Positions 28,455-60,648 of a stretch of 64,000 bases of DNA are shown piece after piece. The number at the start of each line of letters is the position of its first letter. Position 1 is the first letter of the stretch. The position numbers were made by a program, and so were the translations under genes. Origin of the DNA: Betaproteobacteria bacterium (GTDB taxonomy: Bacteria > Pseudomonadota > Gammaproteobacteria > Burkholderiales > Burkholderiaceae_C); assembly GCA_031367285.1 (NCBI GenBank), contig JANLPN010000392.1:197-64196 (forward strand), given 5' to 3'. Under the pieces are notes generated by a model that worked only from the letters and a program-made list of their open reading frames with translations, did not search any database and was not told the origin of the DNA.

Positions 28455-29219
28455 ATGTCCAACGAAGTCCTGGTGGAACACATCGACGGCATGGTGATCG
28501 TCACGATCAACCGGCCCGAGCAGAAAAACGCGGTCAACCGCGCCGTCTCGTATGGCGTGTGCGAGGCTCTTGACGAGATGGACCACCGCAATGACCTGCG
28601 CATCGGCATCCTGACCGGTGCCGGAGGCACCTTCTGCGCCGGCATGGACCTCAAGGCCTTTTTGCGCGGCGAGGTGACACGGGTCAAGGGTAGGGGCATT
28701 CTGGGCATAGCACTGACACCGCCGCGCAAACCGCTGATTGCCGCCGTGGAAGGTTACGCGCTGGCCGGGGGGTTTGAATCGGTACTCGCCTGCGACCTGG
28801 TGGTGGCGGCGCGGGATGCAAAGTTCGGGCTGCCCGAGGTGAAGCGCGGACTCGCCGCCGCCGCCGGCGGGCTGATGCGGCTGCCGCGGCTGATACCGCA
28901 GCGTATCGCCATGGAGGCGGCGCTCACTGGCGACATGATGGGGGCCGAGCGGCTGTACCAGTACGGCCTGATCAATGCCCTGGTGGAGCCGGGTCAGGCG
29001 CTGGAAGAAGCCAAGAAGCTGGCCCGGCGCATCCTGGCCAATGCTCCGCTGGCGGTGGCCGCGAGCAAGCAAGTGATCATCGAACAGCGCGACTGGCCCA
29101 TCGCCGATATGTTCGCGCGCCAGGAGTCTATTACCGGCCATCTGTTGAAAAGCGCCGATGCACGCGAGGGCGCCAGCGCTTTCGCGGAGCGTCGTGCGCC
29201 GGTATGGAAAGGCGAGTGA
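28455..29219 (+). CDS. Enoyl-CoA hydratase/isomerase (crotonase)
   Basis: AAGGAGA RBS; TINRPEQKNA, FCAGMDLK, AVEGYALAGGFE, FGLPEVKRGL. Confidence 0.94.
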   Translation: MSNEVLVEHIDGMVIVTINRPEQKNAVNRAVSYGVCEALDEMDHRNDLRIGILTGAGGTFCAGMDLKAFLRGEVTRVKGRGILGIALTPPRKPLIAAVEGYALAGGFESVLACDLVVAARDAKFGLPEVKRGLAAAAGGLMRLPRLIPQRIAMEAALTGDMMGAERLYQYGLINALVEPGQALEEAKKLARRILANAPLAVAASKQVIIEQRDWPIADMFARQESITGHLLKSADAREGASAFAERRAPVWKGE

Positions 29220-29451: not shown

Positions 29452-29916
29452 ATGAGCGTCAGATTCCAGATCAATGGCAAGTCAGTGAAAGCCGATGCGG
29501 CGCCGGATACCCCGTTGTTGTGGGTGATTCGGGATGAACTGGGCCTGACCGGCACCAAATTTGGCTGTGGCGCTGCGTTATGCGGTGCCTGTACCGTGCA
29601 TCTGGATGGCAAGCCGGTGCGCTCCTGCCAGACGCCGCTGGCAAGTGTCGCCGGCAAGAAGGTCGCCACCGTGGAGAGCCTGTCCAGGAACAACACACAC
29701 CCGCTGCAGGTCGCCTGGATAAAACACGACGTGCCCCAGTGCGGGTATTGCCAGTCGGGTCAACTCATGAGCGCGGCCGCGTTGCTGACGACAAACCGCA
29801 ACCCCAGCGATGCGGATATCGACGCCGCGATGGGTGGAAACATTTGTCGCTGCGGAACCTACCCGCGTATCAAGGCCGCCATCAAGGATGCGGCCTCCAC
29901 CATGCGCAACGCTTGA
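29452..29916 (+). CDS. 2x[2Fe-2S] small subunit of an isoquinoline/aldehyde oxidoreductase (IorA-like)
   Basis: GTKFGCG...[20 protein letters not shown]. Confidence 0.93.
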
Positions 29917-29927
29917 GGAGCACGAAC

Positions 29928-32051
29928 ATGACAAGCTCACGCCGCGACTTTTTGAAGAGCACCACGATCGCCGGGGGCGGTTTGCTGATAGGGTTTGCGC
30001 TGCCTGGGTCGCCCTTGCACGCCGCAGGCACGGTGTACACCCCGAATGCGTGGGTGCACATCGCGGACGACAACACCATCACGCTGATTTCCGCGCGCTC
30101 GGAGATGGGGCAAGGGGTGTACACGTCGATGCCGATGCTGATAGCCGAAGAACTCAACGTCGAGATCAGCCAGATCAAGGTGGACATTGCGCCGCCGGGC
30201 AAGGCCTACGTCAACGCCCTGATTGGAGCCCAGATCACGGGTGGCTCGACCTCGGTGCGCGAAGGCTGGGAAAGGCTGCGGCTCGGCGGAGCACAGGTGC
30301 GCGAGATGTTGATCAGCGCGGCTGCCGACAAATGGGGAGTTGACCGTGCGGGCCTGCGGGCTGAAAAAGGCATGGTGCTGGGCCCCAACGGTCGCACGGC
30401 CACTTACGGACAGTTGGCGGAAGCAGCGGCCAAACTGCCGGTGCCTGAAAAAGTCGCGTTGAAAAATCCGGCGGACTTCAAGATAGTGGGCAAACGCACG
30501 CGGCGGCTGGATACACCGGCCAAGGTCAACGGCACGGCCGAGTTCGGTATTGACGTGCGGCTTCCAGGTATGGCATATGCCAGCATCGAGCAGTGCCCGG
30601 TGATCGGCGGCAAGGTCAAGAGCTACGACGCGTCTGCCGCCAAAGGCATGCCCGGTGTGATTGACGTGGTGCAGATCGGTGACGGCGTGGCGGTAGTCGC
30701 CAGCAGTTACTGGCAGGCCCAGAAAGCCCGTAAGGCAGTAACCGTGCAATGGGACGAAGGCGCCGGTGCGGCGCTGGACCACGCCAAGGCGCTGGCCACG
30801 ACACGGGCGGCGGCCGAGAATGACACGCCGTTGGTGGTCGGAAAACCGCAGGGCGATGTCACGCAAGCCCTGGGCGGCGCGGCAAAAACCATAGAGGCTG
30901 AATACATTACGCACATGGTGGCGCATGCCCCCATGGAGCCGATGAATTTCACCGCCAGCTTCAAGGACGGCAAATGCCTGCTGGTCGGTCCAACGCAATT
31001 CCAGCAGGGCGCCCAAGGGGCAGTCTCGGCCGCACTGGGTATCAAGCCGGAAGATATCACGCTTAGAACGACCTTCCTCGGTGGTGGGTTCGGCCGGCGG
31101 CTGGAACTCGACTTTATCGTGCAGGCAGCCCAGATATCCAAGGCCGTGGGGCGGCCCGTCAAGCTGGTGTGGTCGCGCGAAGACGACATGACCCACGACT
31201 TCTACCGGCCTATGGGCGTGCACAAGATGAAAGCCGGGGTGGATGCACAAGGGAACCCGGTTGCATTGCATTTCAAGGTCGCCTCCCAGTCCGTTACACA
31301 GCGCCTGTTTGGCACACCCAAAAACGTGGTGGATGGTGCCATGGTCGAAGCAGCGGTGGCGGCTTATGAAATCCCCAACACGCGGCACGAACTGGTGATC
31401 CATGATTCCGGTATGCGGGTTGGTTACTGGCGTGCCGTGAGTCACAACATGAACACTTTCGCCAACGAAAGCTTCATCGACGAACTTGCGCTCGCGGCCG
31501 GCAAAGACCCGTACCAGTACCGCATGGCGCTGCTGAAAAACCACCCGCGTCAACTCAACGTGCTAAAACTGGCCGCCGAGGCCTCTGGGTGGGGCCAGCC
31601 TCTGCCAGCCGGGCGTGGGCGCGGCATCGCGGTGGTCGAGGCCTATGGAACATTCATGGCGCAGGTGGCCGAAGTCACCGTGACCAAGGGCGAACTGACG
31701 GTGCAGCGGGTAACGGTCGTGGCCGATCTGGGACACATGGTCAACCCGGATACGGTCGAAGCGCAAATCCAGTCCAGCATCGTGTTCGGAATGTCCGCGG
31801 GCTTGATGCAAGAGATCACGTTGAAGGATGGGCGCGTACAGCAGACCAATTTCCACGACCACCCGGTGCTGCGCATGCACGAGGTACCCAAGATCGACAT
31901 CGTGCTGGTCAAGAGCACGGAAAACCCCGGTGGTATCGGCGAGCCGGCCACCGCGCTGGTTGTCCCGGCAATTGCCAATGCCGTGGCGGCCGCCACCGGT
32001 AAGCGGGTGCGCAAACTTCCGATTACCGCGCAGGCTATTGCGCTGGCCTGA
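29928..32051 (+). CDS. Molybdopterin-binding large subunit (IorB-like), Tat signal
   Basis: SRRDFLK; EMGQGVYT, TGGSTS, LGGGFGRR, WRAV...FANESFIDELA, GGIGEP. Confidence 0.93.
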   Translation: MTSSRRDFLKSTTIAGGGLLIGFALPGSPLHAAGTVYTPNAWVHIADDNTITLISARSEMGQGVYTSMPMLIAEELNVEISQIKVDIAPPGKAYVNALIGAQITGGSTSVREGWERLRLGGAQVREMLISAAADKWGVDRAGLRAEKGMVLGPNGRTATYGQLAEAAAKLPVPEKVALKNPADFKIVGKRTRRLDTPAKVNGTAEFGIDVRLPGMAYASIEQCPVIGGKVKSYDASAAKGMPGVIDVVQIGDGVAVVASSYWQAQKARKAVTVQWDEGAGAALDHAKALATTRAAAENDTPLVVGKPQGDVTQALGGAAKTIEAEYITHMVAHAPMEPMNFTASFKDGKCLLVGPTQFQQGAQGAVSAALGIKPEDITLRTTFLGGGFGRRLELDFIVQAAQISKAVGRPVKLVWSREDDMTHDFYRPMGVHKMKAGVDAQGNPVALHFKVASQSVTQRLFGTPKNVVDGAMVEAAVAAYEIPNTRHELVIHDSGMRVGYWRAVSHNMNTFANESFIDELALAAGKDPYQYRMALLKNHPRQLNVLKLAAEASGWGQPLPAGRGRGIAVVEAYGTFMAQVAEVTVTKGELTVQRVTVVADLGHMVNPDTVEAQIQSSIVFGMSAGLMQEITLKDGRVQQTNFHDHPVLRMHEVPKIDIVLVKSTENPGGIGEPATALVVPAIANAVAAATGKRVRKLPITAQAIALA

Positions 32052-32277: not shown

Positions 32278-32309
32278 CAAAGCGCGAACCAACACGAACG
32301 AGGCACGAC

Positions 32310-34040
32310 ATGAAACGACTTCTTCCAATTGCAAGCGCGGTTGCCGCCGGTCTGCTGGTGGCCTGTGCAAACCCTGACCCACCACGTCTGATGGCAGAAG
32401 CAAAGAGCTGCGCGGCGGCCGCGGCCGCGGTTGCAGCCGACAACCCGGTGCGCGGTACGACCTTGCGTATCACCAAGTCGGAAGAACAGGCCGCGACGTC
32501 CGAGGTCAAGGCGCACTGCCTGGTCGAAGGCGCCATGAACGAACGCATCAGCGCGGTCGATGGGCGGCCCTACGCGATGAAGTTCCGCATGCGCATGCCG
32601 CAACCGCAGGACTGGAACGGCAAGTACTTCATGCAAAGTGTTGGTGGTTTCGTGGGCATCGTCGACACCGGGTTTGGCTGGTACTACGGAATGATCGACA
32701 ACGCGTTCTCGCGTGGCTACGCCGTGATCGTTCAGGACGCCGGGCACGACAACGCAGTCAACTCCGATCCCAACGCCGGCGGCCCGTCGGCCTTTGCGCG
32801 CGACCCGCAGGCGCGCATCGACTTCGGGCACAACTCGTACGACGTGGTTGCGCGCGCCGGCAAGGCGATCGTGAGCACGTATTACGCGAAAGCGCCGGCG
32901 CATTCCTATTTCCTGTCTTGCTCCGACGGCGGCCGCCAGGCGGTGGGCATAGCGCAGCGGTATCCCACGGTCTTCGATGGAATCGTTGCGGGGGCTCCAG
33001 CCATGAGCATCCCGTACATGAGCGCCTACGTGCCGCTTATCGTACAGACGCTTGCGCCTCTGGCGGAACGCGCCGGACACAGGGATGCCAACGGCAGGCC
33101 GTTATTCAACCGGATCTACACCGACGCCGATTTCCAGCTGGTGTCGAATGCCGTGCTCGAGGCTTGCGACGGCCTGGACGGCCTGAAAGACGGCATCGCC
33201 AACAATATCGCCGCCTGCACGGATGCCGTGGTGGTGCCCAAGCTCACCGCGTTGACTTGCCAGGGCGCCAAAACTTCAAGCTGCCTGGCGGCTGATCAGA
33301 TCAGCGCCTTGCGTACCCTGATGGCTGGTCCCAAGACGTCTACCGGCGCGCAGCTTTATCCGGGCCAGGCCTGGGACCCGGGAATTGGCGGGATGAACGC
33401 CGGTGCGTTCAACCAGGAGTTCCGCAGGCAATGGTTTGGTACCTATGACTCACCGACCAACAACTCGACCAAGATGACGATCAGCGCGCCTCAGGCCATG
33501 ATGGTCTGGAAGACGCCGCCGACCCCGATGACGATTCCGCAGGCGATCGACTTCTTCATGAAGTACAACCTCGACGACACCGAAGCCAGCATCACGCGCA
33601 CCAACGACGTCTACAAGCAGTCGGTGGTCGAATGGGGCCTCATGAACTCGCCCGATCTGTCCGGCTTCAAACGACGCGGGGGAAAGATGATTGCCTGGAT
33701 CGGCAACGCCGACGCCGCGGTCAGCGCCAAGGAAACCATCGGCTGGTACAACCAGGTCAATGATCGCGAAGGCGGCAAGGCGTCCGACTTTCTAAAACTC
33801 TTCGTGGTTCCCGGAATGGCCCACTGCACGGGGGGCATGGCAACCGACCGTTTCGACATGCTCACCGCGCTGGAGGCCTGGGTCGAACGTGGCAACCTGG
33901 ACAGCGTTCCGGCAGAGGCCTCCAAGCCCGGGTTTTTCGGGGTAGCAAGCCGCACCCGCCCGTTGTGCCCTTACCCCAAGTACGCGCACTACAACGGCTC
34001 GGGCGACATCAATGTGGCGGCCAGCTTTACATGCAAGTAG
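32310..34040 (+). CDS. Tannase/feruloyl esterase-family lipoprotein, MHETase-like
   Basis: Lipobox LVAC (Cys19); CS-D-HC catalytic set Cys204-Ser205, Asp468, His505-Cys506; GHDNAVN, DPQAR, DGIVAGAP, TDRFDMLT, RTRPLCPYP. Confidence 0.92.
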   Translation: MKRLLPIASAVAAGLLVACANPDPPRLMAEAKSCAAAAAAVAADNPVRGTTLRITKSEEQAATSEVKAHCLVEGAMNERISAVDGRPYAMKFRMRMPQPQDWNGKYFMQSVGGFVGIVDTGFGWYYGMIDNAFSRGYAVIVQDAGHDNAVNSDPNAGGPSAFARDPQARIDFGHNSYDVVARAGKAIVSTYYAKAPAHSYFLSCSDGGRQAVGIAQRYPTVFDGIVAGAPAMSIPYMSAYVPLIVQTLAPLAERAGHRDANGRPLFNRIYTDADFQLVSNAVLEACDGLDGLKDGIANNIAACTDAVVVPKLTALTCQGAKTSSCLAADQISALRTLMAGPKTSTGAQLYPGQAWDPGIGGMNAGAFNQEFRRQWFGTYDSPTNNSTKMTISAPQAMMVWKTPPTPMTIPQAIDFFMKYNLDDTEASITRTNDVYKQSVVEWGLMNSPDLSGFKRRGGKMIAWIGNADAAVSAKETIGWYNQVNDREGGKASDFLKLFVVPGMAHCTGGMATDRFDMLTALEAWVERGNLDSVPAEASKPGFFGVASRTRPLCPYPKYAHYNGSGDINVAASFTCK

Positions 34041-34063
34041 CGGCTTGCCGGGTTTCGCAATGG

Positions 34064-36148
34064 ATGGCGGCGCAGCTGCCAACCGCGGTGGCGCTGGCCA
34101 TTGGTTCACTCTGCGCCAGCTGCGTGAACGCCCAGGCGCTGGAGCCCGTAGTGGTGTCCGCCTCTCGCGCGCAGCAGCGCAGCTTCGATGCGCCGGCCGC
34201 CATTCAATTGGTTGATCGCGCAGCGATAGAGAACGCCGGGCCACAGGTCAACCTGTCGGAGTCGCTGAATCGGGTGCCCGGCCTGACGATACTCAACCGG
34301 CAAAACTACGCGCAGGATCTGCAGGTTTCCATCCGTGGTTTTGGCGCCCGGTCAGCGTTTGGCATCCGGGGCATCCGCATACTGGTGGATGGCATTCCCG
34401 CCACAACACCGGACGGCCAGGGGCAGGGTTCGTCGATCAGTTTGACGTCAACGGATCGCATCGAAGTCTTGCGGGGTCCGCTGGCGCAGTTGTATGGCAA
34501 TTCGGCCGGTGGCGTGATCCAGGCATTTACCCGCAGCGCCCCTGAACAGCCGGAATTCGGCGCGCAGGCTTACGTTGGCTCCTACGGCATGCGCCGCGGC
34601 GACTTGCAGTATGCCGGACGTATCGGTGCCTATGGCGTGGTGGCCGACTACAGCACGTTTGACACCAACGGGTACCGGGACAACAGCAACACCGAGCGCC
34701 GACAGTTCAACGGCAAGCTGAACTTCAATGCAGGCGAAAGCACCAGCGTCAACCTGGTCTACAACCGCTTCGACATGCCAATGGCACAGGATCCGCTTGG
34801 GCTCACTGCCGCCCAGATGGCCGCCAATCCGTCGCAGGCAGGCAACAATGCCACCAGTCGAAGGACGCGCAAAGCGGTACTACAGGATCAGCTTGGCGGC
34901 TCGCTGGTCCACACCATCGATGCGGAGCGCTCGCTCACCGCCCGCCTTTATTACGGAACCCGCGATAACCTGCAATACCAGACCGGCCTCGCGGCATCCA
35001 CCGGGGCATGGGTCGGGCTGGATCGAAGCTATTACGGTACCGGCCTCCAATACAACCAGCAAGGGCAAATTGGCGGTCGGCGCGTGACTTGGGCGGCAGG
35101 TTACGAGTTTGACCGATCCCGGGAAACGCGCCAGGGCGGCGTTGCGGCATTGGGCGAGAAAAAGTCCACCACCCGCAACGAAGATAACCAGGCCGAAAAC
35201 AGCGATCTTTTTATCCAGGCAACGGCCCTGGTATCGGACCAGCTGTCGATGGTGGCCGGCCTGCGCTACAGCACGGTCCGCTTCGCCAGCCATGACCACT
35301 ACCTGAGCGATGGAGACGGCTCGGGTTCGACCAGCTTCCGGGCCACCAGTCCGGTGCTGGGGCTGACCTACCATGCCAGCGACGATCTCAATCTGTATGC
35401 CAATTACGGCAAGGGGTTCGAGAGCCCCACGCTGGCCGAGGTGGCCTACCGTGGCGCGGGCACACCGGCATTCAACACCACCCTGAATGCGTCCAGCAGC
35501 CAGCACTATGAATTGGGTGCGAAGTGGCTGCCCGATCCGCAATCCCGGCTGGACTTCACCTTGTTCCGGATCGCGTCACGCGATGAACTGGTGGTGGCCA
35601 GCAGCAGCGGCGGGAATTCCACCTTCAAAAACGCGCCGGGGACAACAAGAACCGGATCGGAGCTTTCCGGCAATACCTTGTTGACGCCGCACTTGCGTGC
35701 CACGGTGGCAGCGTCCCGGATCAGCGCGACGTTCTCGCGTGCTTTCACCAGTGGCGCGAACAGCGTAGCGTCAGGCAACAAAATCCCGGGCATTCCGCAA
35801 AGCTTTGTGTTTGCGGAGGTCCTGTGGAGCGGACCGAAGATGGACGGCGGCGGCATAAAAGATGCCGGCCTTGGGAGCCAGGCCGGCATCGAATTCACCC
35901 GCGCCGGAAGACTGTATGCCAACGACACCAATACGGCCTCTGCCGATGGCTACAGCAGCGTGAATGCCAAACTCAGCCATGGCTGGAAGCTGGGCTCCGG
36001 CAGTCTGACGGCCTATACGCGCGTCGACAACCTGGCCAACAAACGTTACGCGGGCTCGGTGATTGTCAACCAGGCGGCGGCGCAGTACTACGAGCCGGCG
36101 TCCGGAAGAAACTGGACGCTTGGGCTTCGAATGGTGTTGCCACTGTGA
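34064..36148 (+). CDS. yncD: TonB-dependent receptor, YncD/PqqU family (candidate PQQ importer)
   Basis: Plug NLSESL..VPGL...NRQNYAQDLQVSIRGFG.RS.FGIRGIR..VDGIPAT.PDGQGQ matches the recalled YncD/PqqU sequence. Start approximate. Confidence 0.8.
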   Translation: MAAQLPTAVALAIGSLCASCVNAQALEPVVVSASRAQQRSFDAPAAIQLVDRAAIENAGPQVNLSESLNRVPGLTILNRQNYAQDLQVSIRGFGARSAFGIRGIRILVDGIPATTPDGQGQGSSISLTSTDRIEVLRGPLAQLYGNSAGGVIQAFTRSAPEQPEFGAQAYVGSYGMRRGDLQYAGRIGAYGVVADYSTFDTNGYRDNSNTERRQFNGKLNFNAGESTSVNLVYNRFDMPMAQDPLGLTAAQMAANPSQAGNNATSRRTRKAVLQDQLGGSLVHTIDAERSLTARLYYGTRDNLQYQTGLAASTGAWVGLDRSYYGTGLQYNQQGQIGGRRVTWAAGYEFDRSRETRQGGVAALGEKKSTTRNEDNQAENSDLFIQATALVSDQLSMVAGLRYSTVRFASHDHYLSDGDGSGSTSFRATSPVLGLTYHASDDLNLYANYGKGFESPTLAEVAYRGAGTPAFNTTLNASSSQHYELGAKWLPDPQSRLDFTLFRIASRDELVVASSSGGNSTFKNAPGTTRTGSELSGNTLLTPHLRATVAASRISATFSRAFTSGANSVASGNKIPGIPQSFVFAEVLWSGPKMDGGGIKDAGLGSQAGIEFTRAGRLYANDTNTASADGYSSVNAKLSHGWKLGSGSLTAYTRVDNLANKRYAGSVIVNQAAAQYYEPASGRNWTLGLRMVLPL

Positions 36149-36269
36149 CGTCGTGTCCAGCATCCAATGGCCGGAAAGCTGGGAGATGCCAAGGGTTTAC
36201 CCTAGTAGATTATTCTTGGACGCATGATGCAATACTCACGCGTAAGTTTTTAACCCGAAAGGAAGACAA

Positions 36270-37547
36270 ATGATCTTTAAAGAATACCGGCTGCTTGGCC
36301 GTGTGCTAGGCCGTGCCGCACTCGCGGGCGCCTGCGCGCTGTCGTTCGCTTCCGCGGCGGTGCACGCGCAGCCGGTTAAAAAGTACGACTCGGCGAACAA
36401 GGCGTTCTGGGACAAGCCGCCCGCGGATTGGTACCTTGGTGACGAAAACGAAGCCCAGAAAGGCCAGACGCCCCCTGCGGGTCCGGCCCTGCCGACGTCG
36501 ATGGCGGACCTGGAAGCCAACCTGAAGGCGATCAAGCTGCCCAAGGGCTTCACGATCAGTGTTTTTGCCAGCGGCGTCGCCAGTGCGCGGCAGATGGCCT
36601 GGGGCGACAAAGGCACTTTGTTCGTTGGTTCGTTCGGCGTCGGAAGTGTCTATGCCATCACTGACAACGGCGGCAAGAAGGAAGTCAAGACCATCCTGAC
36701 CGGGCTGACCTTGCCCACCGGCATCGCGTTCCGGGATGGCGCGCTGTATGTCGCGGCGGTAAGCAAGATCCTTAAATACGAAAACGCCGAAGCCAATCTC
36801 GACAAGATGCCTGATGCCAAGGTGGTTTACGACGACATGCCGGCCTATACCGCGCATGGCTGGAAGTACCTTGTTTTCGACAAAAATGGCTGGCTCTACG
36901 TGCCGTTTGGCCCGCCGTGCAACGAGTGCCTGCCGCCGACCAGCCTGTCGCAGATACGCCGCGTCAACCCCGACGGCAGCGGCCAGGCTGAGCTGGTTGC
37001 GATGGGCGTGCGCAACAGCGTCGGAGGCGACATCGACCCGCGCAGCGGTGAATACTGGTTTACCGAGAACGCGCGCGACTGGCTGACGAACGACCTGCCG
37101 AGCGACAAGCTGAACCGCATCGCCAGGATCGGAGCGCATTACGGTTACCCGTATTGCCACCAGGGCAACTTGCCGGACCCGAAGTTTGCGATGGGCCACA
37201 AGTGCTCGGAGTTCACGCCACCGGTCGTTAATCTGGGTGCGCATGTGGCGCCCTTGGGGATGAAGTTCTACACCGGCAACCAGTTTCCGGCGGAGTACCG
37301 CAACAACATACTTATCGCCGAGCATGGCTCATGGAATCGCCACAAGTACACCGGCGGGCGCATTTCCCGCGTGGTGACCGATGCCCAGGGCAAAAACCCG
37401 AAACACTCGGTCTTCGCCACCGGGTGGATCAACGGCGACAAGAGTTATTCCGGCCGGCCGGCGGACATCCTGGTCGCCGCCGACGGCTCGATTCTGATCG
37501 CCGACGACTGGGCCGGTGCCATCTACCGCATCAGCTACGCGAAATAG
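36270..37547 (+). CDS. PQQ-dependent sugar/sorbosone dehydrogenase-family beta-propeller, Sec signal
   Basis: GVRNSVG, YGYPYCH, AHVAPLGMKFY, EHGSWNR, GRPADI...DGSILIADD. Confidence 0.87.
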   Translation: MIFKEYRLLGRVLGRAALAGACALSFASAAVHAQPVKKYDSANKAFWDKPPADWYLGDENEAQKGQTPPAGPALPTSMADLEANLKAIKLPKGFTISVFASGVASARQMAWGDKGTLFVGSFGVGSVYAITDNGGKKEVKTILTGLTLPTGIAFRDGALYVAAVSKILKYENAEANLDKMPDAKVVYDDMPAYTAHGWKYLVFDKNGWLYVPFGPPCNECLPPTSLSQIRRVNPDGSGQAELVAMGVRNSVGGDIDPRSGEYWFTENARDWLTNDLPSDKLNRIARIGAHYGYPYCHQGNLPDPKFAMGHKCSEFTPPVVNLGAHVAPLGMKFYTGNQFPAEYRNNILIAEHGSWNRHKYTGGRISRVVTDAQGKNPKHSVFATGWINGDKSYSGRPADILVAADGSILIADDWAGAIYRISYAK

Positions 37548-37625
37548 CCCGCGGTCCATTCCTATTGCCCGCCAGTTGTCCTGGTGGGCAAGTTTTTTTT
37601 GCCGACCCGAAATTATGAAAACGCC

Positions 37626-38207
37626 ATGAAATATGCGGTGGCCTGTGCGGCACTTTCCCTGCTGATCTCGACGGCCCACGGCGCCGACCTTGCGGCCGGG
37701 GCAGCCAAGGCCGAAACCTGCATGGCCTGTCACGGCCAGCGCGGCATTTCGCAGATGCCCGATACCCCGTCTCTTGCCGGCCAGCCGGACGGATTCCTGC
37801 AGTGGCAACTGGTCTACTTTCGCAGCGGCACCCGCAAGAGCCCGCTCATGCAGCCGATGGCTACCAGCCTGAGCGACGACGATATCCGCAATCTCTCGGC
37901 CTACTTCGCCGCGCAGAAGCCGCCGCCGCCGGGCGTGAATGGAGCCGCCGAGCCGGTGATGTTCGCTGCCGGCCAGCAACTGGCGCAGCAAAACCGCTGC
38001 GCCTCCTGCCACAAAGACGACTATTCCGGCACACAGGCCACGCCCCGCACCGCCGCGCAGCGGGAAGACTACCTGGTAAAGGCTTTGCGCGAATTCAAAG
38101 CCGGCGCCCGCACTGGCGGTGGCGTTGCCGCCATGGCAGACGTGGTCTACCCGCTTGCCGACGACCAGTTGCGCGCACTGGCGCATTTCATGGCCCACCT
38201 GCCTTGA
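37626..38207 (+). CDS. Di-heme cytochrome c4-like protein
   Basis: Signal peptide; two CxxCH motifs (CMACH, CASCH); PSLAGQ, axial Met in MQPMA. Confidence 0.9.
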   Translation: MKYAVACAALSLLISTAHGADLAAGAAKAETCMACHGQRGISQMPDTPSLAGQPDGFLQWQLVYFRSGTRKSPLMQPMATSLSDDDIRNLSAYFAAQKPPPPGVNGAAEPVMFAAGQQLAQQNRCASCHKDDYSGTQATPRTAAQREDYLVKALREFKAGARTGGGVAAMADVVYPLADDQLRALAHFMAHLP

Positions 38208-38272: not shown

Positions 38273-39283
38273 ATGCCCGCATTGGACCCCGACGTTGAAG
38301 CCCTGCTGGAACTCGGCCGCAAAGCCGGCGCCCGCCCGTTCGAGCAGTTGACGCCCGACCAGGCACGCGCCGCCTATGCCGCCAGCTGGGACCTGCTGCA
38401 ACCCAAGGCGCAAGACGTCGGGTCGGTGCACGACCACACAATTGCAGGCCAAGGCGGCCCACTGCGCCTGCGCGTCTACCGCGCTATCGGAACAGTGGCC
38501 GGCGAGCTGCTTCCCTGCATGGTTTTCCTGCACGGCGGCGGCTGGGTCATCGGCAACCTGGAGAGCCACGACAGGTTTTGCCGCCGCCTCGCCAACCAGG
38601 CCCGAATCTGCGTCGTGGCGGTGGACTACCGGCTTGCGCCCGAGCACCGCTTCCCGGCCGCTCTGGACGACTCGGCCAGCGCCCTGCAGTGGGTCAGCGA
38701 CAACCTGCAGGCGCTCGCCATCGCGCCCGGCCGTCTGGCCATTGGCGGCGACAGCGCGGGCGGCAATCTCGCCGCGGTATTGGCCTTGATGGGGCGCGAC
38801 GGCACGGCGCCGCGCACCATGTTCCAGCTGCTGATTTACCCGGTGGTGGACCTCACGGCGGGCAGCGATTCCTACCGCGGGGTGACGTCCGGTTTTCCGT
38901 TGACGGCGGCCACCATGCATTACTTCATAACCCACTACACACCACAGGCAGGCGACCGGCTCGACTGGCGCGCGTCGCCGCTCAAGGCGGCCAGCCTGGC
39001 CGGCACACCGCCGGCCATGGTCGTGACCGTGGCCAACGACCCGCTGTGCGACGAAGGGCGTGCCTACGCGCGGCGGCTGGAAGACGAGGGGGTACGCGTG
39101 ACGGCGCTGCACCTCAGCGACCACCAGCACGGCATGCTGATGCACGGCAAGCTGGTACGGATGAGCAACGTCATCAATGATTTTGTCGCCGCCGCCGTGG
39201 GTGACGCGCTACACCGTGGCAGAGCGACCCACGACACGGCCGATGGAGTGGCCGGCCCCTCACCGACCGCGTACGCGCCTTAA
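38273..39283 (+). CDS. Alpha/beta hydrolase, HSL-family esterase/lactonase
   Basis: HGGGW, DYRLAPEHRFPAA, GDSAG, DPLCDEG, HG. Confidence 0.93.
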   Translation: MPALDPDVEALLELGRKAGARPFEQLTPDQARAAYAASWDLLQPKAQDVGSVHDHTIAGQGGPLRLRVYRAIGTVAGELLPCMVFLHGGGWVIGNLESHDRFCRRLANQARICVVAVDYRLAPEHRFPAALDDSASALQWVSDNLQALAIAPGRLAIGGDSAGGNLAAVLALMGRDGTAPRTMFQLLIYPVVDLTAGSDSYRGVTSGFPLTAATMHYFITHYTPQAGDRLDWRASPLKAASLAGTPPAMVVTVANDPLCDEGRAYARRLEDEGVRVTALHLSDHQHGMLMHGKLVRMSNVINDFVAAAVGDALHRGRATHDTADGVAGPSPTAYAP

Positions 39284-39318
39284 CCCAAGCGACCCAAGCG
39301 ACCCAAGCGACCCAAGCG
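39283..39318 (+). repeat. Intergenic tandem repeat (ACCCAAGCG)x4
   Basis: Four exact 9-mers starting at the esterase stop codon. Confidence 0.95.
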
Positions 39319-39371
39319 CCATCCGGCCACAGTCCATCCTTGGCGATGGGCCGCCCACCCTGGAGACACCC

Positions 39372-41021
39372 ATGACCCGCACCGAACCCGAAAATTCACG
39401 CCGTGTTGACGCCGTTGTTGTTGGCGCCGGTTTTGCCGGACTTTATATGCTGGTCCGCCTGCGCGAGCTGGGCCTGAAAACACAGGTCTTCGAAGCCGGG
39501 GACGGTGTGGGTGGTACCTGGTACTGGAACCGCTATCCGGGCGCGCGCTGCGACGTGGAGAGCATGCAGTACTCGTATTCGTTCTCGGAAGCGCTGCAGC
39601 AGGAATGGCAATGGACCGAGCGTTATCCCCGGCAGGAAGAAATCCTGCGCTACATCAACCATGTGGCCGATCGCTTCGAACTGCGCCCAGACATCCGGTT
39701 CGAAACCCGCGTCACGGCCGCGGCCTACGACGCGGCCGGCCAGCAGTGGACAGTGCGTACCGATAAAGGCGATACGGTGGTGGCGCGTTTCCTGATTTCC
39801 GCCGGGGGCTGCCTGTCGGCCGGCAGGGTGCCGGACATACCCGGTCTGGACAGCTTCAAGGGCAAGTGGTACCACACCGGCAACTGGCCGCACCACACCG
39901 TGGATTTCAGCGGCCAGCGGGTTGGCGTGATCGGCACCGGGTCATCCGGCATCCAGGCGATTCCTGCCATCGCGCGCCAGGCCAGCCAGGTGGTGGTATT
40001 CCAGCGCACGCCCAATTTCAGCATTCCGGCCTGGAACCGGCCGTTGCCGCGGGACGAGCAACAGGCCTGGAAAGCGAACTATGCCGAACACCGTGAAAAA
40101 GCGCTCGCTACCCGTTCCGGGATCCTGTACGAATACAGCCAGCGGGCGACTTCCGAGGCCACGCCGCAAGAGCGGCAACAGGAGTACGAGCGGCGCTGGC
40201 AACGTGGTGGCGCCAACTTCACCCACGCCTTCAACGATATCTTTGTCAACAAGCAATCCAACGACAGCGCGGCCGAGTTCGTGCGCGACAAGATCCGCGG
40301 CATCGTCAAAGACCCCGAGGTCGCCGCGTTGCTTGCGCCGACCGACCATGCCATCGGTACCAAACGCATCTGCGTCGACACCGACTACTACCAGACCTTC
40401 AACGAAGCGCACGTGCGTCTGGTCGATCTGCGCGCCACGCCCATTACGGACATTGTCGCGGCCGGCATCCGCACGCCTGCCACCACCTACGAACTCGACA
40501 GCATCGTGTTCGCCACCGGCTACGACGCCGTGACGGGGGCACTGGACCGCATCGATATCCGGGGTCCGGGCGGCCGGGCCCTGAAAGAGAAATGGAGTGA
40601 AGGTCCGCGCACCTACCTGGGCATCATGACCGCCGGCTTTCCCAACCTGTTCTTCATCACCGGGCCCGGAAGCCCTTCCGTGCTGACCAACGTGGTGGTG
40701 GCCATCGAGCAGCACGTGGACTGGATCGCGCGTTGCCTGCAACACATGCAAACCCGGCAGCTGGGTGTGGCCGAACCTACGGCGAGCGCCGAAGACGCAT
40801 GGGTGGAGCGTGTCAACCAGGTCGCGGCCGGCACCCTGTTCCCCAGCACCAAGTCCTGGTACATGGGTGCCAACATTCCCGGCAAACCGGCGGTGTTCCT
40901 GCCCTTCGTGGGAGGTTTCGGCAACTACCGGGCCATCTGCGAAGAAGTGGTCATGCAAGCCTATCGGGGATTCCAGTTCACGGACCGCGCACCGCTGGTA
41001 CCGGCCGTTCAACCCCATTGA
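39372..41021 (+). CDS. Type I Baeyer-Villiger monooxygenase
   Basis: GAGFAG, GGTWYWNRYPGARCD, fingerprint FKGKWYHTGNW, GTGSSG, catalytic Arg in TKRIC. GGAGA RBS. Confidence 0.95.
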   Translation: MTRTEPENSRRVDAVVVGAGFAGLYMLVRLRELGLKTQVFEAGDGVGGTWYWNRYPGARCDVESMQYSYSFSEALQQEWQWTERYPRQEEILRYINHVADRFELRPDIRFETRVTAAAYDAAGQQWTVRTDKGDTVVARFLISAGGCLSAGRVPDIPGLDSFKGKWYHTGNWPHHTVDFSGQRVGVIGTGSSGIQAIPAIARQASQVVVFQRTPNFSIPAWNRPLPRDEQQAWKANYAEHREKALATRSGILYEYSQRATSEATPQERQQEYERRWQRGGANFTHAFNDIFVNKQSNDSAAEFVRDKIRGIVKDPEVAALLAPTDHAIGTKRICVDTDYYQTFNEAHVRLVDLRATPITDIVAAGIRTPATTYELDSIVFATGYDAVTGALDRIDIRGPGGRALKEKWSEGPRTYLGIMTAGFPNLFFITGPGSPSVLTNVVVAIEQHVDWIARCLQHMQTRQLGVAEPTASAEDAWVERVNQVAAGTLFPSTKSWYMGANIPGKPAVFLPFVGGFGNYRAICEEVVMQAYRGFQFTDRAPLVPAVQPH

Positions 41022-45998: not shown

Positions 45999-47657
45999 AT
46001 GCCAACACCACCAAGCTTCGACGTGATCGTGATCGGAGCGGGTTTTGCCGGATTACACATGTTGCATCGGCTGCGCGGCATGGGGTATGCAGCCCGCGTC
46101 TACGAAGCGGGCGCCGACGTGGGCGGGGTCTGGTACTGGAACCGGTATCCGGGTGCCCGCTGCGACGTGGAAAGCCTGCAGTATTCGTATTCGTTTTCAC
46201 CCGAGCTGGAGCAGGAATGGGCGTGGAGCGAGAAATACTCCGCGCAGCCCGAAATCCTGCGCTACATCCAGCATGTGGCCGACCGCTTCGATCTGCGCCG
46301 CGATATCCAGTTCAATACCCGCGTGCGCTCGGCCAGGTTCGACGAAGCAGCCGGGCGCTGGTTGCTCCAGACTGAAACCGGCGCGCCGGTGTCCTGCCGG
46401 TTCGTTGTCATGGCCACCGGCGCGCTGTCGATCCCGCGTCTGCCGGACGTGCCCGGGATCGCGGATTTCGCGGGCAAGGTCTACCACACTGGCGCCTGGC
46501 CGCACGAGGGGGTGGACTTCAGCGGGCTGCGGGTCGGTGTTATCGGCACCGGGTCTTCGGGCATCCAGGCCATACCGGCGATTGCCAAACAGGCACGGCA
46601 GCTGGTGGTGTTCCAGCGTACCGCGAATTTCTCCATCCCGGCCTGGAACGGGCCGCTGCAGGCCGACGCGCAGCAGGCCTGGAAGGCGGCCTACCGCGAA
46701 CACCGCCAGCGGGCGCGCGAGCTCGGTACGCTGTACGAGTTCAGCGACCAGGCCGCCTCGCAGGTTGACGAGCCCACGCGCACACGCGAGTACGAGCGGC
46801 GCTGGAACAAGGGCGGCGTCAATTTCGTGCATGCGTTCAACGACCTGATGCTGGACAAACGCTCCAACGACACCATTGCCGACTTTGTGCGGGCGCGGAT
46901 TCGGGACATCGTGAAAGACCCGGAGGTGGCGGCGTCGCTGTGCCCCATGGACCATCCCCTGGGCAGCAAACGCATCTGCGTGGATACCGGTTATTACGAG
47001 ACCTACAACCGCGCCAACGTCACCCTGGTCGATCTGAAAAAGACCCCGATCCGGAAGGTCACGGCCACCGGCATAGGGACCGGCGCAAGTAATGGCGAGG
47101 GTGACGGCGCGAGTAACGGCGAGACGGTTCACGAACTCGACGCCCTGGTTTGCGCCACCGGCTACGACGCCTTGACCGGCGCCGTGCTCAACATCGACGT
47201 GCGCGGGCGCAACGGAGTGGCACTGACGGACAACTGGGCGGCCGGGCCACGCACCCTGCTGGGTCTGATGACCAGCGGTTTCCCGAACCTGTTCATCATC
47301 ACGGGCGCGGGCAGCCCGTCGGTGCTGGTCAATATGGTGGTCGGCATCGAACACCATGTCGAATGGATCTGCGATTGCCTGGCCTACCTGCGCAGCCACG
47401 GCCTGGCCACCATCGAGGCCACGCGGGCGGCCGAAGACCGCTGGGTCGAACACGTCAATGCCGCCGCCAACCGGACACTGTTCCCGCTGGCGAATTCCTG
47501 GTTCCTGGGCGCCAATATTCCGGGCAAGCCGAGGGTCTTCATGCCTTATGTGGCCCGCATCGGCGTTTACCGCAAGGAGTGCCAGGAGATTGCCGACAGC
47601 GGGTACGCCGGCTTCGTGCTGGCGCCCGCCAGCGCTGTGTCGAAGGGTGCCCCATGA
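45999..47657 (+). CDS. Type I Baeyer-Villiger monooxygenase, second paralog
   Basis: GAGFAG, WYWNRYPGARCD, FAGKVYHTGAW, GTGSSG, SKRIC. Confidence 0.95.
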   Translation: MPTPPSFDVIVIGAGFAGLHMLHRLRGMGYAARVYEAGADVGGVWYWNRYPGARCDVESLQYSYSFSPELEQEWAWSEKYSAQPEILRYIQHVADRFDLRRDIQFNTRVRSARFDEAAGRWLLQTETGAPVSCRFVVMATGALSIPRLPDVPGIADFAGKVYHTGAWPHEGVDFSGLRVGVIGTGSSGIQAIPAIAKQARQLVVFQRTANFSIPAWNGPLQADAQQAWKAAYREHRQRARELGTLYEFSDQAASQVDEPTRTREYERRWNKGGVNFVHAFNDLMLDKRSNDTIADFVRARIRDIVKDPEVAASLCPMDHPLGSKRICVDTGYYETYNRANVTLVDLKKTPIRKVTATGIGTGASNGEGDGASNGETVHELDALVCATGYDALTGAVLNIDVRGRNGVALTDNWAAGPRTLLGLMTSGFPNLFIITGAGSPSVLVNMVVGIEHHVEWICDCLAYLRSHGLATIEATRAAEDRWVEHVNAAANRTLFPLANSWFLGANIPGKPRVFMPYVARIGVYRKECQEIADSGYAGFVLAPASAVSKGAP

Positions 47658-48493
47658 CCGCGGCGCCAGGAGATTCCACGACCCAGGGCGGCCAGCGCTT
47701 CACGGGGCGGATTGCCGTCATAACCGGGGGTGCCAGCGGCATCGGCAAGTCGTGTGCGGAGGTCCTTGCGGCGCAGGGTGCCCTGGTGGTTATCGCCGAC
47801 CTGGACCTCGTGGGAGCGACCCGCGTGGCCGATGGGCTTGCCGGCCGTGCGTACGCCATCGACCTGGGCCATGCACCGGATATCGACGTATTCGCCCGGC
47901 GCGTGGAACGCGAGGTCGGTCCGGTGGACATGCTGGTCAACGCGGCCGGCATCATCCAGGGCGCGGCATTGCCTCCGCAGGAGCTGGCGCTCGAAACCTA
48001 TGACCGCGTGTTCGCCGTCAACCTGCGCGGCACCTATGCCGCTTGCGCCGCCTTCGGCCGGCATATGGCCGCGCGCCATCGTGGCGCCATCCTCAATATT
48101 GCATCCATCGCCGGCATGCGCTCGACACCCCTGCATGCCTACGGCCCCATGAAAGCAGCGGTGATCCAGCTGACGGAAAACCTGGCCACCGAATGGGGGC
48201 GCAGCGGCGTGCGCGTGAACTGCCTGTCACCGGGCCCGGTGCTCACCCCCGCGCTGCAGGACGCCATAAGCAAAGGCCAGCGCGACCGAGAGCGCATGGA
48301 AAACAGCATGGCCAGCGGTCAGCTCGTGATGCCGCGGGAAGTGGCCATGGCCGCTGCGTTTTTGTTATCGGACGAAGCGTCCGCCATCACCGGCGTCAAC
48401 CTTCCGGTGGACCACGGCTGGCTGGTCGCCAGCCCCTGGGCTTCATTCGGCGGCGTGCGGCCGCGTTTACCAACCAGCAAGGAACTTTCATGA
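47654..48493 (+). CDS. SDR-family oxidoreductase
   Basis: TGGASGIG, NAAG, YGPMK, NCLSPG, VDHG. Confidence 0.9.
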   Translation: MTAAPGDSTTQGGQRFTGRIAVITGGASGIGKSCAEVLAAQGALVVIADLDLVGATRVADGLAGRAYAIDLGHAPDIDVFARRVEREVGPVDMLVNAAGIIQGAALPPQELALETYDRVFAVNLRGTYAACAAFGRHMAARHRGAILNIASIAGMRSTPLHAYGPMKAAVIQLTENLATEWGRSGVRVNCLSPGPVLTPALQDAISKGQRDRERMENSMASGQLVMPREVAMAAAFLLSDEASAITGVNLPVDHGWLVASPWASFGGVRPRLPTSKELS

Positions 48494-57235: not shown

Positions 57236-57246
57236 GATCTGAATCG

Positions 57247-60644: not shown

Positions 60645-60648
60645 CGGC

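Follow-up and report, generated by a model that had tools for sequence, protein, structure and literature searches.

A predicted exported esterase of the tannase/MHETase family from a freshwater Comamonadaceae lineage, with an altered substrate pocket

The window analysed here, a stretch of DNA of 64 kb, carries a gene for a predicted exported serine esterase of the tannase/feruloyl-esterase/MHETase family, and both the family match and the predicted export signal support this assignment, made in the original prediction. The esterase belongs to a subfamily of the freshwater Comamonadaceae/Burkholderiales that is uncharacterised so far, hereafter the Ser-Asp clade; it is an ordinary member of its family and not a new kind of system. 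The preferred reading, to which we give a probability of about 0.55, is that the product, Sec-exported and probably lipid-anchored, would act in the periplasm as an esterase on carboxylate-bearing and probably non-planar esters rather than as a dedicated MHETase. A carboxylated aromatic or alicyclic ester, as initially proposed, is a plausible substrate, the substrate being inferred solely from residue identities in the alignment and from the gene neighbourhood. The gene and its signals are as follows.

32310..34040, + strand: CDS of the tannase/FAE/MHETase-family esterase, 576 aa (ATG start; stop TAG at 34038-34040)
32300..32303, + strand: GAGG, Shine-Dalgarno-like, with the ATG 6 nt downstream (sequence read)
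32310..32366, + strand: putative signal peptide with lipobox L16-V17-A18-C19 at nt 32355-32366 (sequence read; comparison within the Ser-Asp clade)

The open reading frame is exactly the one first delineated, and a scan for promoter and terminator consensus sequences around the gene gave nothing exceeding the shuffled expectation. The N-terminus, MKRLLPIASAVAAGLLVA followed by C19, comprises a K/R-containing n-region and then a hydrophobic core upstream of the lipobox LVAC, which fits the pattern [LVI][ASTVI][GAS]C and is present, as claimed, at the predicted lipoprotein N-terminus; Cys19 would become the lipidated N-terminus, with Ala at +2. A lipobox is found in about 23 of 31 Ser-Asp clade members and a type I signal peptide in the remainder, and MHETase also has a lipobox signal peptide. 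Since five disulfides are predicted, and a lipobox or signal peptide occurs throughout the clade, export of the esterase to an oxidising compartment is probable.

Family membership was evident from a full-length match to the Pfam family Tannase (PF07519, the ESTHER Tannase family; E-value 8e-105; a score of 351.9 bits where 29.8 is the curated cut-off; all 490 profile positions, 1-490, covered), while the NCBIfam scan of the esterase matched no curated model and gave no equivalog name. The MHETase chains were matched by phmmer over esterase residues 60-575 with E-values of 1e-139 to 1e-141, and by BLASTP with 46% identity over 517 aa (445 bits), compared with E-values of 1e-32 to 1e-9 for the fungal FAE and tannase structures, in agreement with the earlier view of a MHETase-family rather than a generic tannase match. 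MHETase is the top PDB match partly because it is the sole bacterial family member among the matching solved structures. The conserved blocks cited originally (GHDNAVN, DPQARIDFGHNSYD, GAKTSSCL, RGGKMI, DAAVSA, TDRFDMLT, FGVASRTRPLCPYP and GSGDIN) all occur in the translation and align to MHETase, and ten Cys residues of the esterase align with those of the five MHETase disulfides (C51/92, 224/529, 303/320, 340/348, 577/599). A structure prediction from a 13-sequence alignment was dropped, its pLDDT being only 70. The AlphaFold model from a 121-sequence alignment (pLDDT 94.7, pTM 0.92), a check suggested at the outset, superposes on MHETase in Foldseek with TM 0.88-0.92 and rmsd 2.2-2.8 A over about 560 columns, and on the fungal FAE and tannase with TM 0.60-0.78; in the comparison of the model with MHETase, the esterase is predicted to have an alpha/beta-hydrolase core with a large inserted lid domain. 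The features of the catalytic centre, all located by alignment, are listed below.

32634..32651, + strand: oxyanion loop Q109-S-V-G112-G113-F114 (MHETase E-G-G-S131-G132-T133)
32919..32927, + strand: nucleophile elbow C204-S205-D206 (MHETase C224-S225-E226), the hallmark of the Ser-Asp clade
33711..33722, + strand: catalytic D468 and pocket residues A470 and V471 (MHETase D492, A494, F495)
33822..33827, + strand: catalytic H505 and C506, the disulfide partner of C204

The catalytic set of the original prediction, C204/S205/D468/H505/C506, aligns with C224/S225/D492/H528/C529 of MHETase as a CS-D-HC motif, and the elbow SCSDG and the oxyanion loop QSVGGF were reproduced in the MAFFT alignment of 221 family members. 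Cys204, D468 and H505 are invariant in the 121-sequence alignment and Ser205 is conserved in at least 90% of the sequences. By homology, the C-S-D-G-G elbow presents Ser205 as the nucleophile, which His505 and Asp468 would activate, with the Cys204-Cys506 disulfide linking the nucleophile to the base and the backbone NH groups of Gly113 and Asp206 providing the oxyanion hole. The Ser-Asp clade has 24 clade-specific positions, many of which adjoin catalytic residues, including V111, Q210, W463 and N466 (MHETase G130, E230, Y487, M490). Within a larger 143-member clade described below, V111 stands in place of a Gly kept in 111 of the 111 other members, the residues whose places D206 and Q210 take are likewise invariant, or nearly so, among these 111, and Asp at MHETase position 226 is limited to the Ser-Asp clade. 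The clade-specific positions are not significantly enriched among the 16 published pocket positions (2/24, p = 0.15). The Ser131 and Glu226 pair of MHETase is represented by G112 and D206 in the window esterase. In MHETase, S131G, E226T and F495I each substantially reduce MHET hydrolysis, S131G raising the Km about eightfold; Gly131 is also found in the active Comamonas and Hydrogenophaga enzymes (PMC7568301).

The lid domain, which would form the substrate pocket, contributes the following features.

33003..33644, + strand: lid domain, residues ~232-445 (MHETase 252-469; alignment and model, lid limits from PMC7568301)
33168..33197, + strand: Ca2+-site residues D287, D290, L292, D294 and I296 (conserved in the alignment)
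33471..33509, + strand: lid helix K388-MTISAPQAMMV-W400, with putative carboxylate-binding K388/S392/Q395 and the pocket-end W400 (alignment)

The lid holds I234, M237, S238, Q374, K388, I391, S392, Q395 and W400, and is probably stabilised by Ca. The counterparts of its Ca-site residues are D304, D307, L309, D311 and I313, which we take to form the Ca site of MHETase, and the disulfide cysteines C286/C303 lie nearby in the esterase. A bound Ca ion is mentioned for MHETase (PMC7568301). The MAFFT alignment of 221 family members upheld every pocket correspondence named earlier (R411 to K388, W397 to Q374, F415 to I391, S419 to Q395, F424 to W400 and F495 to V471) and added L254 to I234, A257 to M237, G258 to S238 and S416 to S392. 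R411 of MHETase, held by S416, S419 and G258, binds the substrate carboxylate, while F415, L254, W397 and F495 clamp the phenyl ring; turnover of MHET is almost lost in the R411A/Q mutants and is lower with F495A (PMC6461665). The anchor positions Arg411/Ser416/Ser419/Gly258 correspond to K388/S392/Q395/S238, by which a positive charge and one Ser appear to be kept, and the clamp positions are occupied by I391, I234, Q374 and V471. D206, I234, M237, K388, S392, W400 and V471 form an invariant signature of the Ser-Asp clade, and Lys at MHETase position 411 is widespread across the family alignment. The remodelling of the pocket, central to the original prediction, thus stands in part: K388/S392/Q395/W400 is the state of the marine MHETase-like enzyme Mle046 and carries no novelty, whereas D206, Q374, V471, F114, I234 and M237, along with the catalytic-centre changes V111, Q210, W463 and N466, are on residue identities the distinctive changes of the window esterase.

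The description of the protein as closely resembling MHETase is overstated, since the identity is 46%, at least 85 database clusters outscore MHETase as matches to the window esterase and the two fall in separate clades. MHETase itself has more than 120 relatives at 558-1360 bits as against about 470 bits for the window esterase. Knott et al. 2020 found most of 6,671 family sequences to be <53% identical, and assigned MHETase to a set of FAE-annotated proteins from proteobacteria (PMC7568301). In a bootstrapped neighbour-joining tree of sequences sampled as the best matches of two queries, the window esterase lies inside the 32-member "Ser-Asp elbow" clade (bootstrap 100) and the 19-member Arg411 MHETase clade (bootstrap 100) lies on another branch, the two joining only at the 143-member node. 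Mle046 and the window esterase share one branch, a 77-member clade, with the nodes linking them supported by just 56-91%. The confirmed MHETases sensu stricto (Ideonella, Comamonas thiooxydans, Hydrogenophaga) are 73-81% identical to IsMHETase; the window esterase, with 46% identity and a position outside the Arg411 clade, falls outside that group (EC 3.1.1.102). The expectation of clustering with MHETase was therefore borne out only at the broader level, the protein grouping with MHETase-like proteobacterial enzymes and not with fungal tannases. Among the sampled sequences, the Ser-Asp clade occurs only in MAGs of uncultured Rhodoferax, Rubrivivax and other Comamonadaceae, and the metagenomes behind the window sequence are from freshwater sediment.

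The genes surrounding the esterase were compared with those of other clade members.

28455..29219, + strand: enoyl-CoA hydratase gene, whose counterpart in the orthologous loci L003/L012 immediately precedes the esterase
29452..32051, + strand: IorA/IorB-type 2Fe-2S and molybdopterin hydroxylase genes, inserted between hydratase and esterase relative to L003/L012
34031..36148, + strand: TonB-dependent receptor gene, starting at ATG 34031 (10-nt overlap with the esterase stop) or ATG 34064 (23 nt after it)
36270..38207, + strand: genes for a PQQ-type (GSDH-like) dehydrogenase and a cytochrome c, which belong, like the TonB receptor gene, to one window-specific insertion
38273-39283, + strand: Abhydrolase_3 esterase gene, a conserved neighbour in L003/L012
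39177-41021 (ORF), + strand: type I Baeyer-Villiger monooxygenase (BVMO) gene, a conserved neighbour in L003/L012

The orthologous loci have the order ECH - esterase - Abhydrolase_3 - BVMO - SDR. BVMO/FMO genes were found within 10 kb in 6 of 13 Ser-Asp clade loci, in three independent arrangements, against 0 of 55 loci of other family members (Fisher p 1.6e-5; 0.002 with repeated arrangements collapsed). TctC genes were found in 7/13 clade loci and 13/55 control loci, which is weak evidence given the great number of TctC genes in Comamonadaceae. Among more distant members of the clade (61-68% identity), the neighbours are a bicupin and an Amidohydro_2 gene (L014/L021) or only TctC (L005/L007), contexts that could point to phenolic-acid esters. 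BVMOs are cytoplasmic flavoproteins, and an Abhydrolase_3-type esterase next to a BVMO is the usual BVMO-esterase pairing; the one beside the BVMO here is the more obvious partner for BVMO products. The esterase and the TonB receptor are probably co-transcribed since their genes overlap or nearly abut. This adjacency is restricted to the window sequence, present as two metagenome contigs (L001/L002) with an identical esterase and the same gene order, and was given little weight as a functional clue, being absent from all 13 other Ser-Asp clade loci. IorB of the window has a Tat-like N-terminus. No tph, Rieske dioxygenase or pca genes were found within the 64-kb window, which thus shows no genomic link to terephthalate catabolism. 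The AMP-ligase protein (49648-51237) gave no match in a contig-index look-up and its region was annotated by Pfam.

In the preferred reading, the far end of the pocket, which Trp400 closes off, would bind a negative group of the acyl part through Lys388, with Ser392 and Gln395 keeping this lysine in place, by analogy with the Lys/Ser/Gln/Trp set, the presumed carboxylate anchor in Mle046, and with Arg411/Ser416/Ser419, which serve likewise in MHETase. In mid-pocket, Gln374, Val471, Ile391, Ile234 and Met237 would take the places of Trp397, Phe495, Phe415, Leu254 and Ala257. Because the aromatic clamp is lost, a flat para-substituted benzene ring is probably not the preferred acyl group, and an aliphatic, alicyclic or otherwise shaped carboxy-ester may be favoured. 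The gene lies in a catabolic island, extending from about 1 to 52 kb of the window, in which Baeyer-Villiger monooxygenases, further esterases, CoA-dependent enzymes and TctC carboxylate receptors are numerous. The esterase would probably act on an exogenous ester in the periplasm, and the resulting acid and alcohol could then be taken up and fed into the island pathway. The link between the esterase and this pathway is indirect because the BVMOs and CoA enzymes are cytoplasmic and the esterase is exported. A stronger proposal, tentative and rather unlikely, is that the Ser-Asp clade would constitute a new specificity class of periplasmic hydrolases for monoesters of non-aromatic (aliphatic/alicyclic) dicarboxylic acids or for similar carboxy-esters, with the anchor kept, the clamp replaced by an aliphatic/polar wall and, in the subclade of the window esterase, an aromatic residue shifted from position 397 in the lid to the oxyanion loop as F114. 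Searches of the literature brought up nothing relevant that links characterised bacterial tannase-family enzymes to Baeyer-Villiger clusters or dicarboxylate monoesters.

A feruloyl/hydroxycinnamoyl esterase or tannase-like depsidase that frees phenolic acids from plant or lichen esters is suggested by the family name and the 'feruloyl esterase' source annotations, by the grouping of MHETase with FAE-annotated proteobacterial proteins (PMC7568301) and by a habitat of sediment rich in plant detritus. In L014/L021, paralogous members of the clade lie downstream of the bicupin and Amidohydro_2 gene, all in the same orientation. The bicupin and Amidohydro_2 families include ring-cleavage dioxygenases and hydroxybenzoate decarboxylases. 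This alternative is nevertheless unlikely: the name is an annotation for which the literature searches found no assay on this branch, MHETase and its BHET-active variants are inactive on coumarate and caffeate methyl esters, chlorogenate and p-hydroxybenzoate methyl ester (PMC6461665), Lys388, conserved and cationic at the end of the pocket, favours a substrate that has an anionic group, the clamp residues are swapped for aliphatic or polar ones, and the orthologous context is alicyclic/aliphatic in style (BVMO, thiolase/ChsH2-like, CoA transferases).

Hydrolysis of an ester or lactone produced by the Baeyer-Villiger monooxygenases nearby, a pathway intermediate and not an imported substrate, would also accord with the clade-specific association, significant and seen in three different arrangements, with genes for BVMO/FMO and luciferase-like monooxygenases. 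This is rather improbable, as export is indicated by the five disulfides and by the lipobox or signal peptide that every clade member has, while BVMOs are cytoplasmic, and a cytoplasmic-type Abhydrolase_3 esterase directly adjoins the BVMO in the window and in L003/L012.

A genuine terephthalate-monoester hydrolase of the MHETase/Mle046 type, with MHET, mono-hydroxybutyl terephthalate or a similar para-carboxy-aromatic ester as physiological substrate, is very improbable even though each of the two branches of the 143-member clade includes a confirmed MHET hydrolase (MHETase in one case, and Mle046 on the branch of the window esterase), Mle046 at 46.9% identity (PMC8351946) is no closer to MHETase than is the window esterase at 46%, and both share K/S/Q/W at 411/416/419/424, for W397, F495 and E226, kept in both confirmed enzymes, are Q374, V471 and D206 here, F495A, F495I and E226T lower MHETase activity (PMC6461665, PMC7568301), G112 equals the S131G change with its roughly eightfold higher Km (PMC7568301), no terephthalate dioxygenase or tph genes lie within the 64 kb while hosts of confirmed homologues carry TPA catabolic genes (PMC7568301) and plasmid pDY25-B a TPD cluster, and the Ser-Asp clade, from freshwater sediment metagenomes in the case of the window, is tied to BVMO clusters and not to tph. 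Measurable promiscuous turnover of MHET by the window esterase is, by analogy, quite possible, though less likely than not.

MHETase-like enzymes are wanted as partners for PET and PBAT hydrolases, and to our knowledge very few natural ones have been characterised, namely IsMHETase, two close homologues and Mle046. The K/S/Q/W set, the presumed carboxylate anchor of the Mle046 type, is widespread along one entire branch of the family, and in the well-defined Ser-Asp clade the ring-binding wall and the surroundings of the catalytic serine have changed together. The activity of clade members would indicate how far terephthalate-ester activity reaches and what the natural substrates of the common bacterial 'tannase/feruloyl esterase' genes are. 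If the clade were indeed a new specificity class, its members could be natural starting points for enzymes that hydrolyse intermediates of aliphatic or mixed polyesters, and the role of the abundant 'feruloyl esterase' homologues of freshwater Comamonadaceae would be revealed.

Among known systems, the esterase shares with Ideonella sakaiensis MHETase (EC 3.1.1.102; PDB 6QGA, 6QZ1-4, 6JTT/U, 8EKG) the PF07519 family, the two-domain fold (TM 0.88-0.92), the Ser-His-Asp triad with the adjacent Cys-Cys disulfide, the five disulfides, the Ca-site residues, the lipobox and, by alignment, a cationic residue plus Ser at the far end of the pocket (R411/S416, here K388/S392). It differs in its 46% identity and separate, well-supported clade, in R411->K, S419->Q and F424->W, in the lost aromatic clamp (W397->Q, F495->V, F415->I, L254->I), in E226->D, S131->G and T133->F, in the clade-specific G130->V, E230->Q, Y487->W and M490->N, and in the lack of tph genes close by. 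Mle046, a hydrolase of MHET and mono-hydroxybutyl terephthalate (PMC8351946), is nearer, with 49% identity to the window esterase, exceeding the 46.9% between Mle046 and MHETase (PMC8351946), a place on the same 77-member branch and the same K, S, Q and W at 411/416/419/424 and Gly at 131. However, Mle046 keeps W397, F495 and E226, where the window esterase has Q374, V471 and D206, and has L415, F254 and S257 in place of I391, I234 and M237; it has a Sec signal peptide (PMC7666164), with no lipobox found near its N-terminus, unlike the lipobox-bearing window esterase. Its gene is carried, together with a TRAP transporter, by a Tn7-like transposon on a plasmid that bears tph genes as well, and its homolog WP_097374464.1 is on plasmid pDY25-B, which also carries the TPD cluster. 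The fungal enzymes (Aspergillus oryzae FaeB 3WMT, Fusarium oxysporum FaeC 6FAT, Aspergillus niger tannase 7K4O) have the same Pfam family, the CS-D-HC motif and the alpha/beta-hydrolase core with a lid in common with the window esterase. They are secreted glycoproteins with neutral hydroxycinnamate or gallate esters as substrates, and differ from it in identity (17-22%), in structure (TM 0.60-0.78, rmsd 5-8 A) and in their lid and pocket.

The esterase reading frame and its lipoprotein signal were found on translation as the original prediction had described them, the gene having a GAGG motif 6 nt 5' of its ATG and the product an N-terminus of MKRLLPIASAVAAGLLVA-C19, a classical lipobox.

32310..34040, + strand: esterase coding sequence, ATG start, 576 codons, TAG stop

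The entire Pfam profile PF07519 (Tannase/feruloyl-esterase) matched residues 70-576 (351.9 bits, E 8e-105), while an NCBIfam scan of the protein matched no models. In a search of all PDB chain sequences, the six top-ranking matches were all constructs of Ideonella sakaiensis MHETase (E 1e-139 to 1e-141, ~470 bits, residues 60-575), with fungal FaeB, FaeC and tannase ranking below them (E 1e-32 to 4e-9). Identity by BLASTP was 46% over 517 residues, the subject being the MHETase cluster representative, which is 99% identical to MHETase. The MHETase sequence was rebuilt from the printed alignment, which gave a 517-aa fragment; the full-length MHETase sequence contains this fragment exactly, with Ser225 within GCSEGG, and this match makes native MHETase numbering usable.

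Residue correspondences, MHETase to window protein, from a MAFFT alignment of 221 family members
C224/S225/D492/H528/C529 to C204/S205/D468/H505/C506: catalytic and disulfide set
R411 to K388
W397 to Q374
F415 to I391
S419 to Q395
F424 to W400
F495 to V471
E226 to D206
S131-G132-T133 to G112-G113-F114

The same alignment showed the ten disulfide cysteines of MHETase to be kept, and D287, D290, L292, D294 and I296 to be conserved relative to their MHETase counterparts, which make up the Ca site. As all the proposed correspondences were recovered along with the cysteines and the Ca-site residues, the first observation is confirmed.

A structural prediction with AlphaFold was mediocre with an input of 13 sequences (pLDDT 70) and reached pLDDT 94.7 and pTM 0.92 with a 121-sequence alignment. 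Foldseek comparison of the model with the PDB placed MHETase at all of ranks 1-20 (TM 0.87-0.92, rmsd 2.2-3.4 A, 43-44% identity), followed by fungal FaeB/FaeC (TM 0.64-0.78) and Aspergillus niger tannase (TM 0.60). MHETase is the top solved match partly because it is the only bacterial family member among these PDB matches.

The search from the window protein returned a dense run of unnamed metagenomic proteins descending from 84% to ~50% identity. The search from MHETase first recovered the MHETase clade (68-99% identity, a Comamonas thiooxydans enzyme named MHETase among its members) and then over 100 clusters with 48-60% identity (558-770 bits); the window protein was absent among the 120 matches listed for this query. 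The same picture is given by the identity distribution of 6,671 family sequences, the majority of which are <53% identical to MHETase; just two proteins stand out, from C. thiooxydans (81%) and Hydrogenophaga (73%), both demonstrated to hydrolyse MHET (Knott et al. 2020, PMC7568301). In a distance-based neighbour-joining tree (541 columns, 100 bootstraps) sampling the best matches to the two queries, the window protein falls in a clade of 32 representatives (bootstrap 100), hereafter the Ser-Asp clade, inside clades of 37 (100) and 63 (98). MHETase falls in a clade of 12 (96-99) inside the 19-member Arg411 clade (100), itself within one of 66 members (63-68), and the first node shared by the two lineages is a proteobacterial one of 143 members (97-100). 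Of the close resemblance to MHETase claimed earlier, family membership stands (PF07519; E 1e-141 to 1e-139) and closeness does not, since at least 85 clusters outscore MHETase (~470 bits) against the window protein; placement within the MHETase clade likewise fails, the protein lying outside the Arg411 clade. It is a genuine MHETase-family esterase, but neither closely nor specially related to MHETase and not part of its clade; it adds an uncharacterised protein to a known family, within a coherent subfamily.

All 32 members of the Ser-Asp clade carry the elbow C-S-D-G-G together with I234, M237, K388, S392, W400 and V471. A signature scan (conservation of at least 90% within the clade, and sharing by no more than 10% of the 111 remaining sequences in the 143-member clade) identified 24 clade-specific positions, which are not significantly enriched in the published pocket list (p = 0.15); several adjoin the catalytic machinery.

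Examples of clade-specific positions
V111: Gly in 111/111 other members
D206: Glu in 111/111 other members
Q210: Glu in 109/111 other members
V212-G213-I214: directly after the elbow
W463, N466: before the catalytic Asp

Co-variation is observed within the clade: the six-member subclade of the window protein has Phe at MHETase position 133 (F114, 32649-32651) and Gln/Thr at 397 (Q374, 33429-33431), and the remaining members have Ser/Thr and Phe/Tyr, respectively, suggesting that an aromatic side chain may have shifted from the lid to the oxyanion loop. Within the species-representative genomes, every protein sharing 60% or more of its sequence with the window protein came from an uncultured MAG, the labels being Rhodoferax, Rubrivivax, Comamonadaceae, Betaproteobacteria or Burkholderiales; the gene itself occurs in freshwater-sediment and sediment metagenomes. 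Multiple esterase copies per MAG are frequent, several MAGs having 2-3 family copies. A Rubrivivax sp. MAG locus (L016, 2341-9000) carries three paralogues in a row within 7 kb (one +, two -; 68%, 55% and 58% identical to the window protein), with an MFS-like ORF and the gene for a periplasmic binding protein close by.

The first ~52 kb of the window (1-52100) is one large catabolic island. It includes three FMO/BVMO (Baeyer-Villiger monooxygenase) genes and three alpha/beta esterases; two Abhydrolase_3 esterases lie there besides the window esterase.

4454-5392: Abhydrolase_3 esterase
12099-13451: FMO/BVMO
38273-39283: Abhydrolase_3 esterase
39177-41021: FMO/BVMO
45999-47657: FMO/BVMO
48043-49566: luciferase-like monooxygenase (LLM)

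The island also encodes five TctC (Bug) receptors, CoA transferases and ligases, acyl-CoA dehydrogenase, thiolase and ChsH2-like OB-fold proteins, enoyl-CoA hydratase (ECH), an SMP-30 lactonase, SDRs, a TPP enzyme, ABC transport components and TetR, GntR and IclR regulators, a make-up which suggests the breakdown of cyclic ketones, terpenoids or steroid-like compounds. The genes past the island (52519-64000) are unrelated to it and include sugar-type ABC transporter genes; ORFs 52519-53850 (-) and 62690-63751 (+) had no Pfam matches.

53990-57427, - strand: hybrid histidine kinase, 1145 aa
57247-58479, - strand: response regulator fused to an adenylate/guanylate cyclase domain
58521-60836, - strand: GH31 glycosidase

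Upstream of the window esterase gene lie IorA/IorB-type molybdenum hydroxylase genes, and downstream a TonB-dependent receptor gene (10-nt overlap or 23-nt gap) followed by PQQ-type dehydrogenase and cytochrome c genes. At the loci of the 80%-identical orthologue P0004 (L003/L004, L012), the order is TctC - NMO - ECH - esterase - Abhydrolase_3 - BVMO - SDR - ABC transporter - TPP enzyme, with thiolase/ChsH2-like, TetR and CoA-transferase genes upstream. As this order lacks both blocks, they are insertions specific to the window lineage.

29452-32051: IorAB block, inserted relative to L003/L012 on one side of the esterase gene
34031-38207: TonB receptor/PQQ dehydrogenase/cytochrome c block, inserted on the other side

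Both encode extracytoplasmic products only and fit a periplasmic processing module, though not a conserved one; TonB receptors occur at 0/13 clade loci. BVMO/FMO genes lie in the flanks at 6 of 13 clade loci and at none of the 55 control loci, which carry other members of the family (Fisher p 1.6e-5; 0.002 with repeated arrangements collapsed). Three arrangements are involved: ECH-EST-Abh3-BVMO (EST, the family esterase); BVMO divergent from EST (L010); and BVMO-LLM ... bicupin-Amidohydro_2-EST (L014/L021, with L030 placed by its BVMO-LLM pair). TctC genes occur at 7/13 clade loci versus 13/55 control loci. At L014 (3328-7598) and L021 (7637-11302), bicupin, Amidohydro_2 and clade esterase genes follow in the same orientation, the monooxygenase pair lying divergently upstream; these paralogues may belong to a phenolic-acid ester pathway.

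The best explanation, taken whole, is an exported esterase feeding the island (probability roughly 0.55). Homology shows an exported enzyme with a Ser205/His505/Asp468 triad and its Cys204-Cys506 bridge, an oxyanion loop and a Ca-stabilised lid. K388, S392 and Q395 would bind a distal anionic group, and the acyl moiety would probably be other than a planar para-substituted benzene. An imported ester is the likely substrate, to be hydrolysed in the periplasm, and its products may reach the BVMO/CoA-dependent island via TctC or ABC uptake systems. The weak points of this periplasmic mechanism are that the island pathway enzymes are cytoplasmic and that the Abhydrolase_3 esterase is the natural partner of the BVMO.

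The marine enzyme Mle046 is a confirmed hydrolase of MHET and mono-hydroxybutyl terephthalate (PMC8351946), and plasmid pDY25-B carries an identical gene (PMC7666164). There (L090, NZ_CP021406.1, 3990-17536), the homologue has Tn7-like transposition genes on either side, one copy of the set (Mu-transposase C-terminal domain, TniB, TniQ) at each, and the same unit includes a TRAP transporter (DctPQM) and a GntR regulator; this layout agrees with the composite transposon of PMC7666164. In the tree, Mle046 groups with the window protein's lineage, in a 77-member clade (bootstrap 56; inner nodes 64-91) and paired with the family protein P0073 (100). It is nearer to the window protein (49% identity) than to MHETase (45%; 46.9% in PMC8351946), and its activity at that distance from MHETase means that percent identity alone cannot exclude MHET activity. 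Its residues in MHETase numbering are G131, S133, E226, F254, S257, W397, K411, L415, S416, Q419, W424 and F495.

In MHETase, F415, L254 and W397 surround the ring, F495 contacts it, and the carboxylate is bound by R411, which S416, S419 and G258 keep in place; R411A/Q leaves almost no MHET turnover, and turnover is reduced in F495A and affinity in W397A (Palm et al. 2019, PMC6461665). S131G, E226T and F495I substantially cut activity (Knott et al., PMC7568301). It is reasonable to infer from the aligned residues that the window protein keeps the anionic anchor and not the flat aromatic binding wall. Some measurable MHET turnover is possible but rather unlikely; that terephthalate esters are the natural substrate is highly improbable, and no Rieske dioxygenase, tph or pca genes were found in the 64-kb window. 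The pocket does differ from that of MHETase, as proposed, but its Lys/Ser/Gln/Trp set does not amount to remodelling, being that of Mle046, a working terephthalate-monoester hydrolase. Relative to MHETase and Mle046 alike, the window protein has E226 replaced by Asp, W397 by Gln and F495 by Val, with further changes at 133, 254 and 257. As read from sequence, the subfamily has catalytic surroundings and a ring-binding wall unlike those of both known MHET hydrolases, and a predicted carboxylate end like that of Mle046.
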